Below, piece by piece: positions 1 through 22,781 of a DNA stretch of 41,531 bases. The notes beneath the pieces are model-generated. The model did no database searches and was not told the origin of the DNA. It saw nothing but the letters and a program-made list of their open reading frames with translations. The translations under genes and the position numbers were made by a program. The DNA lies in assembly GCA_964484515.1 (NCBI GenBank), contig CAZAGT010000005.1:1-41531 (forward strand), written 5' to 3'. The DNA is from an uncultured Desulfobacteraceae bacterium. Lineage in GTDB: Bacteria; Desulfobacterota; DSM-4660; Desulfatiglandales; HGW-15. Position 1 is the first letter of the stretch. Every line of letters begins with the position of its first letter.

Positions 1-1183
1 CCTCCCTGCGGACGCTGGCCCATCCGGTCTCAGCCATCTGTTTCTGCGCCTCATAGGATGTGATGTATCTGAGCAACCAGTAGGCGGCTTCCGGGTTCTT
101 GCTGTCCTTGCTGGGGGCGAAATGGAAGGCCCCGGTGTAGGGTCGAACGCCCGGGACGGTCTTGCAGGCGGCCACGGCTCCCGGGATGTCCTTTCCGACG
201 TCGGTGGACCAGGGCCAGAGCGGCGAATACATAATGGGGACGATGATCGTCTTCCCTCCGACGAAAAAGGCGGTGGCCTGATCCCAGAACGCGTTCTCGC
301 TTCCCGGAGGAGCAAAACGCATCAGCTTCTGATAGTAGTCAAAGGCCCACTCCAGCGACTCCTTGTCCTGATCGGTGATCTTAAACCCTTTCAGCTTGCC
401 GCTTCCATCCCGGACGGGCGAGGCCCAATGGGTTCCCTTGCTCCAGATCATGGTCCCGATCTCATCTTGAACATGCGGGTAACGGCCCGCCATCAAGGAG
501 ACCCCGTAGACATCGTCCTTGAGAGTTTCACCCTTCAGTTGCTCCCCCTGCTTGCGAGTGAAGAATTCGGCCTGGTCGGCCAGCTGTTTCCAGGTATCGG
601 GGGGTGTCAGGGCGTAGCCATACTTCTTCTTGAAGTTCGCTTTTTCTACTGGACTGTCGTAGACGTCTTGGCGGTAGATCGTCATCATGGTGTAGTTGTA
701 GTAGGGGAGTCCGAGCAGTTTACCGCCGGCCGTGGAGCACATCCGCAAGAGGCCCGGATCATGACCCTTGATATCGTCCCTCAGCCCTGCCACGCCGCGG
801 GGGTCATACTTTCGGGCCATGTCCTCAACCGGGTACAGGTAGTCTTCCCATTCGTTGGTCCAGGATGTCTCCGTCACGACGAGGTCATAGGCTCCGGTCC
901 TACCCTGCAACTCCACGATCTCCTTCGAATACAGGGAAGCGAAAACGTGGGACTCCTTGGTGACCTTGATCCCGGTTTTCTGCGCAAACTTCTCGAGGAA
1001 GGGGTAGATGAGATCCGAGCCACCGCCCGCCTCCAGGGCGACATGGATGGGCCGCTTGTTCTTGATCTCCGGTACGTCATCGAGGCCGAACTTCTCTGCT
1101 GCCGTGGCGCTGAAAGCAAGCCCGGCGACAAAGGCAATCACCAGCATCAACGAGAAACCTTTACTCACGGTCTTCGTCTTCAT
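1..1183 (-). CDS. ABC transporter extracellular solute-binding protein (family 1, sugar/polyol type); C-terminus runs off the left edge
   Basis: Absent from the ORF track because it has no stop in the window. Reverse-strand ATG at 1183-1181, preceded by AAAAGGAGGG (rc of 1191-1200). The N-terminus MKTKTVSKGFSLMLVIAFVAGLAFSATAAEKFGL is a Sec signal peptide. I translated the frame by hand down to nt 2 and it stays open (...FAPSKDSKNPEAAYWLLRYITSYEAQKQMAETGWASVRRE, typical of the SBP C-terminal region). The 354-aa + ORF 122..1186 is its antisense shadow. Confidence 0.8.
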   Translation of the reverse strand, partial: MKTKTVSKGFSLMLVIAFVAGLAFSATAAEKFGLDDVPEIKNKRPIHVALEAGGGSDLIYPFLEKFAQKTGIKVTKESHVFASLYSKEIVELQGRTGAYDLVVTETSWTNEWEDYLYPVEDMARKYDPRGVAGLRDDIKGHDPGLLRMCSTAGGKLLGLPYYNYTMMTIYRQDVYDSPVEKANFKKKYGYALTPPDTWKQLADQAEFFTRKQGEQLKGETLKDDVYGVSLMAGRYPHVQDEIGTMIWSKGTHWASPVRDGSGKLKGFKITDQDKESLEWAFDYYQKLMRFAPPGSENAFWDQATAFFVGGKTIIVPIMYSPLWPWSTDVGKDIPGAVAACKTVPGVRPYTGAFHFAPSKDSKNPEAAYWLLRYITSYEAQKQMAETGWASVRRE

Positions 1184-1380
1184 TAAGAATCCCTCCTTTT
1201 TCCTGGGTTTCGGAAGATTGTGATTCTGCGCCGTTAACGGTAGAGTTTGAAAATACCCTGATTGGCTTCCATGATTGACTAGGTGACTTGATGAAGAGTG
1301 GCCGTGAAATCTCTCCATCCGTAATCGGATCAACTTCCCCTGATGGCGAAAAGAACATCGTATGCCTGACAGCTCACGGG

Positions 1381-5130: not shown

Positions 5131-5898
5131 ATGAGTGTGTTCGCACTGTTTGAGCTGAAAGGCGAGACCGCAGTCGTTACGGGTGGCGGCCAGGGGCTTG
5201 GCCGTGAGATTTCGATCGCGTTTGCCGAGGCAGGCGCGGACGTCGTGGTCCTGCAGCGAAATTTGGACGTCGCGGAAAAGACGGCCGAAGACATCCGGAA
5301 ATTGGGAAGAGACGCCATGGCTCTTAAGGTCGACGTGAGCAAGGAGAACGACGTCGAACAAATGGTGAAAACTGTCGTGGACAGATTTGGCAAGATCGAC
5401 ATCTTGGTGAATAATGCCGGGGTTGCGGGGTGGGTAGCTGCCGAGGAGATGTCTCTGGAGGAATGGAACAGGGTCATCGGTATCAATCTAACAGGAGTCT
5501 TTCTAGGTTGTCACCATGTTGGCAAAGAGATGATCAAGCAAAAGAAGGGAAGCATCATCAACATCTCATCGATATCAGGCTTTATCGCCAATCACCCTCA
5601 GAAACAGTGCCACTACAACTCCGCCAAGGGGGGCGTGAACACCCTGACAAAATGTCTGGCCTACGAATGGGCTGAGCACAACGTCCGGGTCAATGCCATC
5701 GCCCCGGGGTTTATCGGGACACCGATGCTGAAAGCGGCGGGTGAGGAGATGCTGAAGACGTGGGCCTCCCTGAACGTCCAAAAACGGATCGGTGACCCGG
5801 CGGAACTCAAGGGTGCCGCGCTGTTCCTGGCCTCCGAGGCGGGCAGCTATCTCACCGGCCAAGTCCTGGTCGCAGACGGGGGGTATATGATCTGGTGA
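5131..5898 (+). CDS. short-chain dehydrogenase/reductase (gluconate-5-DH / KduD-like)
   Basis: TGGGQGLG cofactor motif, NNAG, and the S...YxxxK catalytic set (YNSAK). ATG at 5131 follows AAAGGAGGG. Confidence 0.9.
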   Translation: MSVFALFELKGETAVVTGGGQGLGREISIAFAEAGADVVVLQRNLDVAEKTAEDIRKLGRDAMALKVDVSKENDVEQMVKTVVDRFGKIDILVNNAGVAGWVAAEEMSLEEWNRVIGINLTGVFLGCHHVGKEMIKQKKGSIINISSISGFIANHPQKQCHYNSAKGGVNTLTKCLAYEWAEHNVRVNAIAPGFIGTPMLKAAGEEMLKTWASLNVQKRIGDPAELKGAALFLASEAGSYLTGQVLVADGGYMIW

Positions 5899-5982
5899 CG
5901 TAGGCGTCTCAAGACAATGAGCCATGTCATAATAGCCGGTGCGATAGAACAAGAAAGAGACTTTGTTGGAGGAGGTCCATAG

Positions 5983-7870: not shown

Positions 7871-9406
7871 ATGCACCGGCAATGCGTCATGGGTATCGAC
7901 ATCGGGACCTCGGGATGTAAGACCTTGATCATAGACGACCAGGGCGAGGTCCTGACCAAGGCGGTCGCCGAATACCCCCTTTCAACCCCCAAGCCCGGTT
8001 GGTCGGAACAGGACCCCGAACACTGGTGGGAAGCGGTTAAGGATACGATTCGGCAAACCCTCACGGGTTTTGATCATGCCCGAGACATCAAGGCCATCGG
8101 TCTCAGTGGCCAGATGCACGGTCTGGTTGCGCTTGATGCCGATAGGAACGTGCTCAGGCCTTCGATATTGTGGAACGATCAGCGCACCGGTAAGCAATGC
8201 CAGGATGTCTACGACACCGTGGGAGGGATGGGGGCGCTCCTGGAATTGACCAATAATCGGATGCTGCCCGGCTATACGGGGGGAAAGATCCTATGGGTTC
8301 GTGAAAATGAGCCCCAGGTTTATGAACGAATCAGGGCCATCTTGAATCCCAAGGATTATGTCCGTTTGCGATTGACGGGCGAGTATGCCACCGAGGTTTC
8401 CGACGCATCCGGGACCGGGCTTTTTGATGTCCGCGCCAGACAGTGGTGTTATCCCCTGCTGGAGAAGCTCGAGATCCCAAAGGAATGGGTCCCTCCCTGT
8501 TACGAATCACCTGAAATCAGCGGCGCCCTATCCGCAACCGCCGCATCCGACGTGGGACTCCCATCAGGGTTAGCGGTCGCCGGAGGCGGAGGGGATTCGG
8601 TGGTTCAGACCACCGGGACGGGCTTGGTGGAGCCTGGGATCTTGGGGACGACCATCGGAACAGCGGGGATCGTCGCGATGGCGCTCGACCAGTGCTACGA
8701 TAACCCCGAAGGTAAGCTTCAGGTCTTCTGCAACAATATGCCGGACAAATGGCACACCATGGGCGTCACCCTGGCAGCAGGTGGCTCACTGCGGTGGGTC
8801 CGCGATGCGCTGTGCGGGCCGGAGCAAGAGGTCGCTAACTGGACCGGAGAAGATGTCTATCATTTCATGACCATGGAGGCGCTGAAGGCAGAGCCGGGGT
8901 CTGAAGGTCTCCTTTTCCTGCCTTACCTGATCGGCGAGCGGTGCCCTCATCCGGACCCCAGTGCGAGGGGGGCATTTGTCGGGCTCACGTTGCGACACGA
9001 CCGGCGCCACATTATAAGGAGTGTGCTCGAATGTGTCATCTTCAGCCTAAGGGATGTGGCCGAGGTGATCAAGGAGATGGGTATTCCGATCACCCAAATC
9101 CGTACCTCCGGGGGAGGTGCTCTCAGCACGCTGTGGCGACAGATCCACGCGGATGTCTTCGCCAATGAGGTGATCACCGTGAGCGGTAGTTCGGAGGGGG
9201 GCGCCTACGGGGCAGCCCTGGTGGCCGGCGCCGGTGTCGGCGTTTGGGAGAATGTCGAGGCGGCGGTGCAGGTGTTACGAGCGGAAACGACCACCACGCC
9301 CATCGAAGAGCACACAAAGATCTACGATCGGTTATTCCCTATCTACCAGAATCTCTACGCCGCCTTGAAAAAGAGCTCTGAGCGAATCTCCGAAATCTAT
9401 TCCTAA
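7871..9406 (+). CDS. xylB: xylulokinase / FGGY-family pentulose kinase
   Basis: GIDIGTSGCKT N-terminal FGGY motif, GLSGQMHG and the C-terminal GGGA region. ATG at 7871 follows GGGAGGG. Confidence 0.8.
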   Translation: MHRQCVMGIDIGTSGCKTLIIDDQGEVLTKAVAEYPLSTPKPGWSEQDPEHWWEAVKDTIRQTLTGFDHARDIKAIGLSGQMHGLVALDADRNVLRPSILWNDQRTGKQCQDVYDTVGGMGALLELTNNRMLPGYTGGKILWVRENEPQVYERIRAILNPKDYVRLRLTGEYATEVSDASGTGLFDVRARQWCYPLLEKLEIPKEWVPPCYESPEISGALSATAASDVGLPSGLAVAGGGGDSVVQTTGTGLVEPGILGTTIGTAGIVAMALDQCYDNPEGKLQVFCNNMPDKWHTMGVTLAAGGSLRWVRDALCGPEQEVANWTGEDVYHFMTMEALKAEPGSEGLLFLPYLIGERCPHPDPSARGAFVGLTLRHDRRHIIRSVLECVIFSLRDVAEVIKEMGIPITQIRTSGGGALSTLWRQIHADVFANEVITVSGSSEGGAYGAALVAGAGVGVWENVEAAVQVLRAETTTTPIEEHTKIYDRLFPIYQNLYAALKKSSERISEIYS

Positions 9407-17110: not shown

Positions 17111-17409
17111 GCATCCTGCAAGAACAGATAATCCCCTCCAAAACGAAGGTGGCCCAGGAGGGTCGGGCGACACGCCCTTTGATTTTAACAAATTGAATCG
17201 TATTTGGACACCAAAGACTATCTCCCTAGAGTCCATCCATAAATACAAATTAGACGCTAGCGAAGGTTCCAGATCAGAAATGAGGATTTTTTTGCAAGAC
17301 CAAGGAAATCAAGGGATTGAGCGGAGGCGTACACGAAGTACGTCGCACAAGGAATTCCGCAGATTGACGCTGAGATTGCGGAAAAAGCCCGTTTCTGGAT
17401 GGAAACTAC

Positions 17410-17754
17410 CTAGGGTGGTTCCTCTACAATAAGCTCCATGCAACCCTTGACGCGACCGTCTTGCATAATCGGCATCATCAGGGAACGTCGGGCTATGTCA
17501 CCCCTCTCTACTCTGATTTGCCTCGTGCGCAAATCCCCGTCGGCAAAGGCCTCATACATCTCTTGAATCTTGCGTTGAGACTCGGCATTGTGGCAGTCGA
17601 GCAGGCTTTTGCCGATCAGACCGGCCCCACCTCGCTTTTCGTGGTTCTGAATCGCTGCGTCATTCATATAGATGATGTCGATGTTCTCATCTGAAATGAC
17701 TATCTCACCCTTTAAGCCGCGTAATAACTCATCCAGCGTCCCGGTCTTCTTCAC
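17410..17754 (-). CDS. single PAS-domain protein
   Basis: 114 aa. GTG start 6 nt after AAGGAGG. PAS-like core (IIYMNDAAIQNHEKRGG..LIGKSLLDCH...). Lies upstream in the same operon as the PAS-DHp gene. Confidence 0.6.
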   Translation of the reverse strand: MKKTGTLDELLRGLKGEIVISDENIDIIYMNDAAIQNHEKRGGAGLIGKSLLDCHNAESQRKIQEMYEAFADGDLRTRQIRVERGDIARRSLMMPIMQDGRVKGCMELIVEEPP

Positions 17755-17821
17755 CTTTTTCCTCCTTTCATTTCAGCGCTGCCTTGGCCGCTGCCAAAGA
17801 CGTCGAAAAACCAACTTCTCT

Positions 17822-17985
17822 GAGGCTGATGGAAAATGTCCAGATGCAAGGCTTCCGAAATCCCGCGGAATGAGGCGTACATAAGAGTACGCCGCAGTGA
17901 CAAGGGATGAGGGTAACGCAGCCCTTCGGCTTTGCTCAGGGCCGTGAGCCTGTCGAACGGCAGATGGGCGTTTTCCGACAGCCTC
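17822..17985 (+). repeat. copy 1 (short form) of a modular, self-complementary interspersed element
   Basis: Four blocks are shared with 21776-22055. The ends pair with each other: GAGGCTG/CAGCCTC and GGAAAATGTCCA/TGGGCGTTTTCC. There is an internal hairpin GGCGTAC-ataaga-GTACGCC. It carries an embedded REP-like segment at 17921-17960. Confidence 0.7.
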
Positions 17986-18256
17986 ACCAGGAGGATCTCA
18001 GGATCCACCCGCACCCGATAACGGGGATTGATATGCTCAAACGCGATGACACCATCGGTCCCGATGACGAAGGCCGCCGGCCCCGGCAGGATGTAATGGC
18101 TCTCGCCGCAGGCATCCGCCCGATCGATCCCGAATTCCTTGTAACGCGAAAACGTCTTCTTGTCCAGCCGATGGCCGATTCCAAGCGCGATTGAGGCGCG
18201 GCCAAAGATGTCCTGAGGATGGGATGCGAAAATGGGAAGTTGTTCTTGCGCGAGCC
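17980..18256 (-). pseudogene. C-terminal remnant of a peroxiredoxin-like (AhpC/TSA, redoxin) gene
   Basis: Part of track ORF 17751..18311. ...LPIFASHPQDIFG...HYILPGPAAFVIGTDGVIAFEHINPRYRVRVDPEILL resembles the C-terminal third of redoxin-family proteins (recalled from memory of the family). The Cys-containing N-terminal part is absent. The fragment is bounded by the MFS stop codon on one side and repeat copy 1 on the other. Confidence 0.45.
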
Positions 18257-18259
18257 TTA
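18187..18259. repeat. copy B of the roughly 73-nt repeat (partner at 13688-13761)
   Basis: See copy A. Here the repeat lies within the redoxin remnant reading frame, and its last 3 nt are the MFS stop codon. Confidence 0.7.
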
Positions 18260-19444
18260 AAACCCGCCGACATGGCTGGTCCTGGCAAAATGCGGTGGAT
18301 AAGGCATACAAAGGGTAAATAACACCCCAATCAGCGGCATCCAGGTGGTGAGCCTCAGGACCATGACGACCCCCCAGTAATCCGCCAGCCAGCCTAGGAA
18401 GGTGGCTCCGATCCCGCCGGTGCCGATCGCAAAACCGACCATCAACCCCGAGGCCACTCCCAAACGGTCAGGAAGGATCTGTTGTGCCATTACGATCGTG
18501 ACCGAAAAGGTGGAGACCAGGACCGCTCCAACCAGTCCGAGGACGGGGTAGAGCCACAGTCCATCTGCCTGTAAGAAAAGCCAGAGCAAAGGGGTCATCA
18601 GCGCCATGGAAACGACAAAGAATCGTTTGTGGCCGAACCGGTCTGCAATGGGGGCTCCCAGGAGGGTTCCAAAGGCCCCGGCGATCAAAAAAACCGAAAT
18701 GAGCTTTCCCACCTGGATGGGATCCCCTTCCAGGACATTGACGAAGTAGAAGGGAATAAAAGCGACCAGCCCCATCTGGACCCACGATCGCATAGTCACG
18801 GCCAGAATGAGAAGTGTGAGTGAAATCCAGCGATTGCCGAGCGGTCGCGCGGTCGATGCCTCCCTGCTGACCAGATCCGAACTCTCCCGGCGTTGAGGTG
18901 CCAGCAGGGTCGGCGTCATCACGAATAAGATGGACGCCATGAGTATTCCCGGAACGGCAAAGAGCTCGGTCCCCTTCAGCCCCATCCAGTTGTAGGAGTA
19001 CACGGCCAAAAGAGGGCCCAAGGCGAATCCGAGGTTGCCGCCAACAGAAAAGAAAGACATGCCCGTTACTTTTCGGTCGCCGGTGAAATATTGCGCGACC
19101 TTGAAGCCTTCCGGATGATAGCAGGCGACGCCGAGACCGCTGATCAAGACCGCGAGTAAGAGATAGGCATAGTTGGGTGCGTAACCGAGGACGGAAAACC
19201 CCAAACAGGACACCGCCACCCCGGCGGGGAGCATCCAGATACCAGTCCAACGATCGGACAGATACCCCAAAAAGGGCTGTATGATCGAAGAAGTGATATT
19301 GCTCGTCATGAGGATCGCCCCAGAAGCGGCATAGCTCAGATCAAGCGTCTGCTTGATGAAGGGCAGCAGAATGGGGAGCCCGCCTTGGGTGATATCCGTG
19401 ATCAAGTGGCCTAGACTTAGGATTAAAAGGATCTTCAGGTTCAT
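18257..19444 (-). CDS. MFS transporter (Fsr / fosmidomycin-resistance-like)
   Basis: 12-TM-type hydrophobic profile and an N-terminus MNLKILLILSLGHLITDITQGGLPILLPF...LGYLSDR typical of Fsr-like MFS. The first 51 codons of the track ORF (from 19597) are non-membrane, R/P-rich and probably not coding. Confidence 0.8.
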   Translation of the reverse strand: MNLKILLILSLGHLITDITQGGLPILLPFIKQTLDLSYAASGAILMTSNITSSIIQPFLGYLSDRWTGIWMLPAGVAVSCLGFSVLGYAPNYAYLLLAVLISGLGVACYHPEGFKVAQYFTGDRKVTGMSFFSVGGNLGFALGPLLAVYSYNWMGLKGTELFAVPGILMASILFVMTPTLLAPQRRESSDLVSREASTARPLGNRWISLTLLILAVTMRSWVQMGLVAFIPFYFVNVLEGDPIQVGKLISVFLIAGAFGTLLGAPIADRFGHKRFFVVSMALMTPLLWLFLQADGLWLYPVLGLVGAVLVSTFSVTIVMAQQILPDRLGVASGLMVGFAIGTGGIGATFLGWLADYWGVVMVLRLTTWMPLIGVLFTLCMPYPPHFARTSHVGGF

Positions 19445-21357: not shown

Positions 21358-21600
21358 ATGGCTGAAGCAATCAAAGCAGACAAGGTAATGGACCTAAAGG
21401 GACTCCCCTGCCCGATGCCGGTTGTCAAGGTGAGCAAGGGAATCAAGGATGTCGAAGTGGGTCAGATCATCGAGGCGATCACCACCGACCCTGGAGCTTT
21501 GGCCGATTTTCCGGCCTGGGCGAGGACGAGCGGAAACGAGATCCTTGATACCGAGCAGGGAGACGGCGTGATCAAATTCTATATCAAACGTATCGCTTAG
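21358..21600 (+). CDS. tusA: TusA/SirA-family sulfurtransferase
   Basis: 80 aa with the LKGLPCPMPVVK active-site CPxP motif. AAGGAGG SD. Confidence 0.85.
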   Translation: MAEAIKADKVMDLKGLPCPMPVVKVSKGIKDVEVGQIIEAITTDPGALADFPAWARTSGNEILDTEQGDGVIKFYIKRIA

Positions 21601-21622
21601 TGCTTTTTGGGCTCCCTCTCAC

Positions 21623-21654
21623 GGGGGCGTTGCGACCTCAGACGCGACGCCCCC
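21623..21654 (+). terminator. GC-rich 12-bp hairpin after tusA (no U-tail)
   Basis: GGGGGCGTTGCG-acctcaga-CGCGACGCCCCC, with one G-U pair. Could act as a terminator, attenuator or RNA-stabilising hairpin. Confidence 0.3.
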
Positions 21655-21775
21655 AATCCCTCCCGAAAAGCAAGGACTTCCAGGATCGAACCAAATCGCG
21701 ACGACAAAAGTTCCCTTTCAACAAAGGGAGAGAGATCACGAATACTCACGAGACTGTCGAGAAATCGGTTTCTGA

Positions 21776-22055
21776 GAGGCTGATGGAAAATGTCCGGATG
21801 CAAGGCTTCTGAAACCGGGGACCCGCCCCGAAGGGGTGGGGACTGAGCCGAGCGAAGCGAAAGTGAAGAAATCCCGAGGAATGAGGCGTACGAGTTTTTC
21901 GGCTTGAGGCCTGAGGCTCAAGGTAAAAGCAAAGAAGGTCTTCAACTTGTCTTTCCTCATGCCCCATGCCTTGCGCCTTTTGTATACGCCGCAGTGACGA
22001 GGGATGAGGGTAATCCCGATGGAATCGGGACAGATGGGCGTTTTCCGACAGCCTT
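21776..22055 (+). repeat. copy 2 (long form) of the modular self-complementary element
   Basis: Same four blocks and the same closing helix as 17822-17985, but with three different inserts between the blocks. It ends 4 nt before the AGGGAGG SD of the dsrM-like gene. Confidence 0.7.
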
Positions 22056-22070
22056 TACAGGGAGGTTTCA

Positions 22071-22781
22071 TTGGAAACGGTATACTACATCATTTTGGTG
22101 CCCATGGTTTACCTTGCGTTTGCGGTATTCTTCGTTGGCATCGCGGTTCGACTCGTAAAACTCTTTAGCGCGCCGAAGAACCCCTCGACGCTCCAGGTCT
22201 TCCCCGAAAAAAGACCGCAACGGCTTTGGGCCTTGCATGACACCTTCCTGTTGCCCACCGTCAGGAGGCACAAACCGGTCCTGTGGGTCTTTCTAATGCT
22301 TTTCCACATCGCCTTTCTGCTGCTTATTATCGGGCATATTGAGCTTTTCGGCAATATCAGGATCTTTCAGGTGATTAAACATGAGGTGTTCCTGGGCAGA
22401 GGATTCGTCGGACTCGTTCTCACCATCGCGATCATCTACTTCCTCTTTAGGCGTTTTGTATCACCGACCAAGGATCTGTCCGTCCCCGAGGATTACTACC
22501 TCCTGATCCTCTTGTTTCTGACGGTGCTTTTTGGGAGCCAGATGGACTGGGCCCGGCGATGGTACGAATACAGCGACCTGTTGCCTGACGATTACCGTGA
22601 GTACCTCATGAGTCTGCTCTTTATGCGACCGAAGCTGTCACCCAACCTGACCCTTGCCGGGCACAGCTTCATGCTGGTGCTACATGTGTTCTTTGCAAAC
22701 CTGTTCCTCATGTTCTTTCCTTTCAGCCAGCTCATGCATTCCTTCATCGCGATGCCCATCAATAGATTGAGACGAGGTTGA
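22071..22781 (+). CDS. NarI/DsrM/HdrE-like integral membrane di-haem cytochrome b
   Basis: 236 aa with 5-6 TM helices. His residues are positioned in the TM helices (FHIAFLLLIIGHIELF; GHSFMLVLHVFFANLF...QLMH). TTG start 5 nt after AGGGAGG. Confidence 0.7.
   Translation: METVYYIILVPMVYLAFAVFFVGIAVRLVKLFSAPKNPSTLQVFPEKRPQRLWALHDTFLLPTVRRHKPVLWVFLMLFHIAFLLLIIGHIELFGNIRIFQVIKHEVFLGRGFVGLVLTIAIIYFLFRRFVSPTKDLSVPEDYYLLILLFLTVLFGSQMDWARRWYEYSDLLPDDYREYLMSLLFMRPKLSPNLTLAGHSFMLVLHVFFANLFLMFFPFSQLMHSFIAMPINRLRRG

Follow-up and report, generated by a model that had tools for sequence, protein, structure and literature searches.

A probable new family of hairpin-shaped miniature inverted-repeat transposable elements in uncultured Desulfobacteraceae and other sediment Desulfobacterota

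Two related intergenic repeats in a 41,531-nucleotide stretch of DNA from an uncultured Desulfobacteraceae bacterium (contig CAZAGT010000005.1 of assembly GCA_964484515.1; the whole stretch is called the window below) are very probably copies of one family of non-autonomous DNA transposons, namely miniature inverted-repeat transposable elements (MITEs), with IS5-like ends. The family is abundant in uncultured Desulfobacteraceae and in other Desulfobacterota of sediments. The element, an abundant hairpin MITE, represents a new family within an already familiar class, and its hairpin core is unusually well conserved. Together with its relatives, it fills many intergenic gaps in the metagenome-assembled genomes (MAGs) of sediment Desulfobacterota. 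These repeats break assemblies, spawn spurious open reading frames (ORFs; for example, 17751-18311 in the window), and imitate riboswitch-like leaders; recognition of the family prevents such false RNA and gene calls. The family also illustrates clearly how a palindromic MITE that makes a 3-bp duplication can carry modular inserts in its loops and turn these modules over in situ.

An earlier note on the window had described two units sharing four conserved blocks (a to d), in which block a pairs with block d and block b with block c. It had left two options, a MITE with terminal inverted repeats and nested inserts or a structured RNA, and had proposed a count of further copies, a covariance-model search, and checks for target-site duplications and for compensatory changes in the helices. 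We found the blocks exactly at 17822-17984 and 21776-22054 and at no third place in the window, and dinucleotide-preserving shuffles of the window yielded no block match. Both pairings were borne out; the + strand folded better than shuffled sequences with z = -5.9 for the first unit (copy 1) and z = -5.0 for the second (copy 2). The single A/G difference between the copies (17842/21796) preserves the base pair, A-U becoming G-U, and pairwise alignment places all the length differences between them in the gaps between paired blocks, as the note had stated. The similarity of about 20 nt on the left side, which the note had described as weak, is real but is a part of the element itself. It is conserved in nearly all copies, and consists of a 16-nt outer left terminal repeat followed by a 10-nt spacer. 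The unit therefore starts about 25 nt further left than had been given, and the two copies occupy 17797-17985 and 21750-22055. Of the two options, the MITE with nested inserts stood, and the structured RNA failed in its key prediction.

Copies, ends and target site

Copies were retrieved through exact words taken either from block a or from the right end, and thus the conservation of these two parts is inflated. When one genome per species was scanned with a 25-nt word from block a, 22 loci turned up in four MAGs. One Desulfobacteraceae MAG contained 13 of them and another Desulfobacteraceae MAG 7; of the remaining two, one was in a Desulfatiglandales MAG and the other on a contig binned as Thorarchaeota. 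A scan of metagenomes with the 20-nt right end added at least 120 contigs carrying the repeat. In sediment runs, the summed depth over the repeat was hundreds to thousands, compared with about 3-10 on the flanks, which corresponds to a 100- to more than 1000-fold excess. A covariance model built from 36 copies recovered both window copies and, in addition, a weak third match at 17253-17393. For the analyses below, we used 84 non-redundant copies with both ends (loci L001-L142 and the window). The flanks of the copies are mutually unrelated, two orthologous pairs excepted.

The Thorarchaeota-binned locus (L011, 3955-4153; JBHLRC010000209.1) is a 199-bp copy on a 4.2-kb contig assigned to Candidatus Thorarchaeota. 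Mis-binning is a more likely cause of this assignment than cross-domain transfer.

A perfect 3-bp duplication flanks the element in 40 of the 84 copies, whereas permutation of the right flanks gave a mean of 4.0 and a maximum of 11 in 2000 trials. The first copy set had given the same picture (10 of 21 copies; permuted mean, 1.4). At least two of the three flanking bases match in 61 of the 84 copies (permuted mean, 23), and no signal was seen in this set for duplications of 2, 4, or 5 bp. The duplicated triplets are diverse and A/T-rich (TTA, AAC, and ATA, five each; ATT, four; TAA and TAC, three each; and others), and the target is symmetric and weakly palindromic, with T at -5, Y at -2, R at +2, and A at +5. 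The 3-bp duplication in combination with unrelated flanks is the signature of a cut-and-paste DDE transposon.

We infer that the MITE is moved by a DDE transposase acting in trans, most likely an IS1031-like enzyme of the IS5 family. The transposase would bind the GAG-terminated ends and cut with a 3-bp stagger at an A/T-rich trinucleotide inside a weakly palindromic target of the form T..Y-WWN-R..A, and the MITE would then be inserted between genes. The parent insertion sequence would carry GAGGCTGTCGGAAAACGCCCATCTG ends on both sides. After insertion, the MITE is probably co-transcribed passively with the neighbouring genes in either orientation.

Several results weigh against this reading, including the conservation of the hairpin that is taken up below. 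We searched 884 kb of loci for inverted pairs of the terminal repeat lying 420-2500 bp apart and for IS5-type transposase motifs. Neither an autonomous insertion sequence with these ends nor an IS5-type transposase motif was found, and there was no transposase near any copy examined. The sole find was a 492-bp non-coding element (L025, 364-855) with 26-nt perfect inverted repeats of the right-end type (GAGGCTGTCGGAAAACGCCCATCTGC), which may be a larger non-autonomous relative and which hints at the ends of the parent insertion sequence. A scan of viral contigs and a BLAST search of plasmids gave no matches. In eight DNA runs, we observed no joint that skips the element, in a check of the window region 21400-22500 and of locus L130 (three repeats) that has little power because contigs break at the repeat; the joints seen there were exclusively those of internal modules. 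The target is WWN and not the TNA of IS1031, and TNA accounts for 8 of the 40 perfect duplications. In a separate text search of the literature, the terminal-repeat and apex strings gave no match.

Backbone and length modules

The length of the element ranges between 55 and 328 bp, 151 bp being the most frequent. The 151-bp backbone is composed of the outer left repeat GAGACTGTCGAAAAAC, the 10-nt spacer, and a 125-nt imperfect palindrome that ends in the right repeat GTTTTCCGACAGCCTC; in the aligned copies, the conserved stretch before block a is GAGACTGTCGAAAAACCGGcTTCTGA. At 14 of 16 positions, the outer left repeat agrees with the right end read as its reverse complement (GAGGCTGTCGGAAAAC); the two are the 16-nt terminal inverted repeats. 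Block a also resembles the terminal repeat (GAGGCTGATGGAAAATG versus GAGGCTGTCGGAAAACG). Block d contains the right terminal repeat, and block a, as an inner left arm of repeat-like sequence, therefore pairs with it, whereas blocks b and c constitute the middle helices and the apex of the central hairpin. Helix 1, formed by block a and the right end, is 98.8% paired across the 36 copies. As the pairing of blocks a and d runs through three U.G pairs, the + strand folds better than the - strand (-70.8 and -53.8 kcal/mol, respectively).

The element is non-coding, with stops in all three frames of the + strand. The + strand of the 151-bp consensus contains seven stop codons and is 61% purine; the - strand has no stop codon in any frame, a condition reached by 73 of 20000 composition-matched shuffles (0.4%). 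A direct repeat (CGAGGAATGAGGCGTAC / CGAGGGATGAGGGTAAC) flanks the 3' half of the apex.

The confinement of length variation to loops, noticed in the two window copies, extends to all 84 copies, in which inserts of 8 nt or more are found at four loop sites exclusively. The site after consensus positions 55-65 accepts hairpins of 48, 51, and 57 nt as well as shorter inserts, and the 57-nt insert of copy 2 is one of them. The apex loop accepts inserts of 30-112 nt, including the 93-nt insert of copy 2, and the site after positions 103-107 accepts a 52-nt hairpin. The fourth site, after positions 121-125, holds a 39-nt unit, which is present once in copy 1 and is tandemly expanded up to 129 nt elsewhere; 27 of the 84 copies have an insert at this site. 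The variation in size is thus due to hairpin or tandem modules that are gained, lost, and expanded at the four loop sites, and to deletions between short direct repeats (GATGG). The minimal 55-bp forms (L030, L094, and L102) retain only the outer left repeat, the spacer, and the right end, and appear to have been made by deletion between the GATGG direct repeats in blocks a and d.

The two orthologous pairs, whose members come from diverged lineages, illustrate these changes. In the pair L002 6042-6243 and L139 1605-1755, the same insertion is 202 bp long in one locus and 151 bp long in the other, and the two differ by a 51-nt module; modules therefore turn over in place. In the pair L086 1016-1166 and L137 4644-4794, the left flank has been replaced, which indicates rearrangement at the element.

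Constraint on the hairpin and tests of an RNA role

Compensatory changes, for which the note had suggested looking, are present. In the 36-copy alignment, they were found at 5 pairs in 11 cells, a level reached in none of 500 shuffles, and compensatory double changes were also counted at 8 pairs in 19 cells (shuffle mean, 3.0; maximum, 10). They sit exclusively in the two inner helices (helices 3 and 4), and the outer arms show none. Furthermore, conservation is lowest in the outer left repeat and highest in the interior, even among copies selected solely by their right end, which is the reverse of the typical MITE. In the orthologous insertions, the element is identical at 147 of 151 and 146 of 151 positions, compared with 87-90% identity of the flanks (binomial P = 1.5e-5 and 1.3e-3), and the members of each pair share private variants within the element. 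These three observations suggest a constraint beyond recognition by a transposase. The note had named target-site duplications without strand-specific transcription as the mark of a simple MITE; the duplications exist, but the compensatory changes in the inner helices leave the word 'simple' not fully settled.

A fourth observation is that the apex, GAGGCGTAS-loop-STACGYCGCA, recurs on other repeat backbones in the same loci, namely, the L052 type, a repeat that we call family B, and the type represented by 17253-17400 of the window and by L031. Six sequences, drawn from five backbones, share its core (GAGGCGTA ... TACG.CGCA) without any change. Family B has the same apex and junction motifs as the focal element and, at equivalent loop sites, optionally carries GC-rich hairpin modules of its own. 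When aligned with the published sequence, the repeat at 17253-17400 proves almost collinear with Gmet_R1024 in reverse complement. Gmet_R1024 belongs to the '24 predicted short RNA elements' described for Geobacter metallireducens (PMC2700814, Additional file 4).

Covariation, conservation, the orthologues, and the shared apex suggest that the fold or the apex is under selection. The same four points could also come from template-switch mutation at quasi-palindromes, shared ancestry of the backbones, and a small sample. We propose only tentatively, as an improbable but not negligible extension of the MITE reading, that the rod-shaped interior is in addition a selected nucleic-acid module, carried by at least five mobile backbones in Desulfobacterota including Geobacter. 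This would apply most of all to the apex, in which an A.G mismatch is conserved. The invariance of the apex in the focal family, the three other backbone types, and Gmet_R1024 agrees with such a functional module, as do the compensatory changes in helices 3 and 4, the restriction of inserts to loops, the approximately fourfold higher conservation of the element than of its flanks at the two orthologous sites, the better conservation of the interior than of the outer left repeat, and the presence of the repeat in metatranscriptome contigs. However, just two orthologous pairs were compared, common ancestry of the backbones could account for the shared apex, and the conservation of block a and the right end is inflated by the retrieval with exact words. 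Compensatory changes in a quasi-palindrome can be produced by template switching in the absence of selection. The lack of any orientation bias or strand-specific wobble bias, described in the following paragraph, argues against a function as RNA of one strand. The module could be a DNA site or cruciform for an architectural or host protein that helps a short element to synapse its ends, or an RNA hairpin for mRNA stability or processing. If selection on the hairpin module is real, it would account for the slower evolution of the element compared with the surrounding coding DNA. Confirmation of the constraint on the apex might reveal how very short transposons are synapsed or which host factor binds them, and would assign a function to the 'short RNA elements' that were noted in Geobacter in 2009.

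A strand-specific structured RNA, either a riboswitch-like leader or a small RNA gene with the copies as paralogous RNA genes, would account for the much better fold of the + strand (z of -5 to -6), the covariation of the inner helices, the presence of the repeat in RNA runs, and the fact that a start codon follows 15-35 nt after the end of copy 2 and of several other copies. We examined its predictions in the 84 copies. According to crude but consistent gene calls, 17 copies lie between genes in the (+,+) arrangement, 19 in (-,-), 16 between convergent genes, and 10 between divergent genes. The numbers for co-directional genes, 17 and 19, indicate no preferred transcribed strand. Among single changes in the 44 stem pairs of the + strand fold, 48 give G-U, which is tolerated on the + strand, and 43 give A-C, which is tolerated on the - strand; thus, there is no strand preference for wobble pairs. 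No promoter or terminator consensus was found inside the element, and Rfam gave nothing relevant at the gathering score or at E values up to 10. Metatranscriptome contigs contain the repeat, dozens per run, but they are short and undirected and show just that copies are transcribed somewhere. Taken together, these results make a strand-specific RNA gene or leader unlikely. In view of the 3-bp duplication in 40 of 84 copies, the mutually unrelated neighbouring genes, and the 25 of 44 copies with a - strand gene on the right that lie within 12 nt of its stop codon, we consider this explanation very improbable. Least credible of all is a REP/REPIN repeat moved through single-stranded DNA by a RAYT (Y1 HUH) or a palindromic element derived from IS200/IS605, which would suit a long imperfect palindrome with a sequence-conserved hairpin, intergenic and very abundant, but HUH-moved elements make no duplication and insert beside a fixed short motif, whereas here the duplicated triplets differ from copy to copy, both ends form genuine terminal inverted repeats, and there is a single apex in place of two inverted REP units.

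Three structural details were considered and rejected. Pairing of the outer arms as a helix is complementary in 82.6% of cells in the 36 copies and shows no covariation, and the outer arms are thus better regarded as a DNA terminal repeat. Judged from sequence alone, the internal loop around the apex does not fit the motifs of a K-turn or a loop E. A mini-ORF in the apex (ATG-AGG-CGT-ACA-TAG) has a stop codon that is not conserved among the copies.

With regard to the neighbouring genes, those that read toward the right end and stop there are about twice as many as those that do so at the left end (36 versus 17). A cruder count of ends within 12 nt of a stop codon gave 25 of 44 for the right end and 6 of 40 for the left end. 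This excess coexists with the absence of an overall orientation bias between co-directional genes.

The window copies and comparison with known systems

The features of the window copies and of the related repeats are listed in Table 1.

Table 1. Positions of the MITE copies, their parts, and related hairpin repeats (window coordinates unless a locus is given)
Feature	Position	Strand	Description
Copy 1 of the MITE	17797-17985	+	189 bp; delimited by alignment of 24 and then 84 copies, covariance model (111.9 bits), and repeat-depth edges
Outer left terminal inverted repeat, copy 1	17797-17811	+	AAGAC-GTCGAAAAAC; family consensus GAGACTGTCGAAAAAC
Block a, copy 1	17822-17859	+	Inner left arm, repeat-like, pairs with the right end; followed by junction motif CAGATGCAAGGC
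Apex hairpin, copy 1	17872-17896	+	GAGGCGTAC-ATAAGA-GTACGCCGCA; common to other repeat backbones
Optional 39-nt module, copy 1	17921-17959	+	Loop site 4; not in the modal 151-bp form; tandemly expanded elsewhere
Right terminal inverted repeat, copy 1	17970-17985	+	GTTTTCCGACAGCCTC; 3' part of block d
Copy 2 of the MITE	21750-22055	+	306 bp; between tusA and a dsrM/narI-like gene
Modules of copy 2	21811-21867; 21892-21984; 22014-22030		57 nt; 93 nt, in the apex loop; hairpin
Third hairpin repeat	17253-17400	+	GGTTCCAGATCAGAAATGAGGATTTTTTTGCAAG ... GCGGAAAAAGCCCGTTTCTGGATGGAAAC; different backbone, same apex; covariance-model match, E = 3.9e-4
Family B, six copies	L016 ~2380-2560; L017; L075; L082 ~8760-8940; L130 ~5700-5950; L131 ~1100-1270		Arms CCTGATCACCAGCAAGG ... 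CCTTGATGGTGGATCAGG

Copy 1 consists of the 151-bp backbone, shortened by a 1-nt deletion within its outer left repeat, and one 39-nt module. It has no intact duplication (flanking trinucleotides CCA and ACC), and this, together with the deletion, fits an old insertion that was followed by rearrangement of the flank. The replaced left flank in the L086 and L137 pair is an instance of such a change at another copy. Copy 2 is flanked by CAC and TAC, which match at two of three positions. Both copies look like old insertions. In public runs, the repeat depth rises and contigs diverge at 17795-17802 and 17985-17992 for copy 1 and at 21748-21753 and 22054 for copy 2, where loose ends were also found. 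These edges agree with the revised boundaries. The same runs contain joints that skip 39-40 nt at the module of copy 1 and joints that skip the 57 and 93 nt of copy 2.

Copy 1 is located 42 nt upstream of a PAS-domain gene on the - strand. A 186-aa ORF (17751-18311, - strand) enters from the right and reads through all of copy 1, and its last 78 codons are an artefact, the - strand of the repeat. The label 'redoxin remnant' that the earlier note had given to this ORF could not be confirmed, as the non-repeat part has no Pfam hit and its matches to PDB sequences are weak and not to redoxins. The third hairpin repeat lies between a histidine-kinase gene and the PAS gene. Copy 2 ends 15 nt before the TTG start of the dsrM/narI-like gene, and a dsrK-like gene comes next. 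Directly after tusA, about 95 nt before copy 2, there is a GC-rich 12-bp hairpin (21623-21654), which a simple terminator scan misses because no T-run follows it.

In the IS1031 group of the IS5 family, the direct repeat is exclusively 3 bp, and the reported target is TNA (PMC12016507, PMC2516522). Like members of this group, for example ISLrh, the focal family has a 3-bp repeat at A/T-containing trinucleotides and terminal repeats that start with GA(G/A). Unlike them, its target is WWN, and its link to such a transposase is made by inference. The focal left end GAGACTGTCGAA matches that of ISPg4 and MITE464 (GAGACTGTTGCA) at 10 of 12 positions (PMC4596501). Known MITEs derived from IS5-family insertion sequences include MITEPgRS/MITE464 and BrickBuilt in Porphyromonas gingivalis and ATR in Neisseria, the last being linked to ISNme1 (PMC4596501). 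They are short, non-coding, and dispersed in intergenic DNA with GAG-terminated repeats, as is the focal family, and the internal minisatellite of BrickBuilt resembles the tandemly expanded module at loop site 4. The focal family differs from them in its duplicated left arm (the outer repeat and block a), its long and highly conserved palindromic interior, its hosts, which are sediment Desulfobacterota, and in that its parent insertion sequence was not found in the loci searched.

The Correia elements of Neisseria and the ERIC and YPAL elements of enterobacteria are likewise imperfect palindromes of about 100-170 bp between genes, with size classes based on modules. They are co-transcribed in either orientation, which resembles the passive co-transcription proposed here. 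Correia elements have a central IHF site. Unlike the focal family, they duplicate TA, and their sequences are unrelated to it.

Finally, the Gmet_R1001-1024 elements of Geobacter, described solely as putative RNAs, are intergenic and multi-copy, like the focal family. Their central palindrome GRCGTAGCGCTGCTACGCC (GRCGTAGC..GCTACGCC, with flanking GGA...GCA) matches the focal apex GAGGCGTAC..GTACGCCGCA with the closing pair swapped. The focal family (GGCGTAC-N6-GTACGCC) has just the apex and the junction motifs in common with them, and the arms and ends are different.

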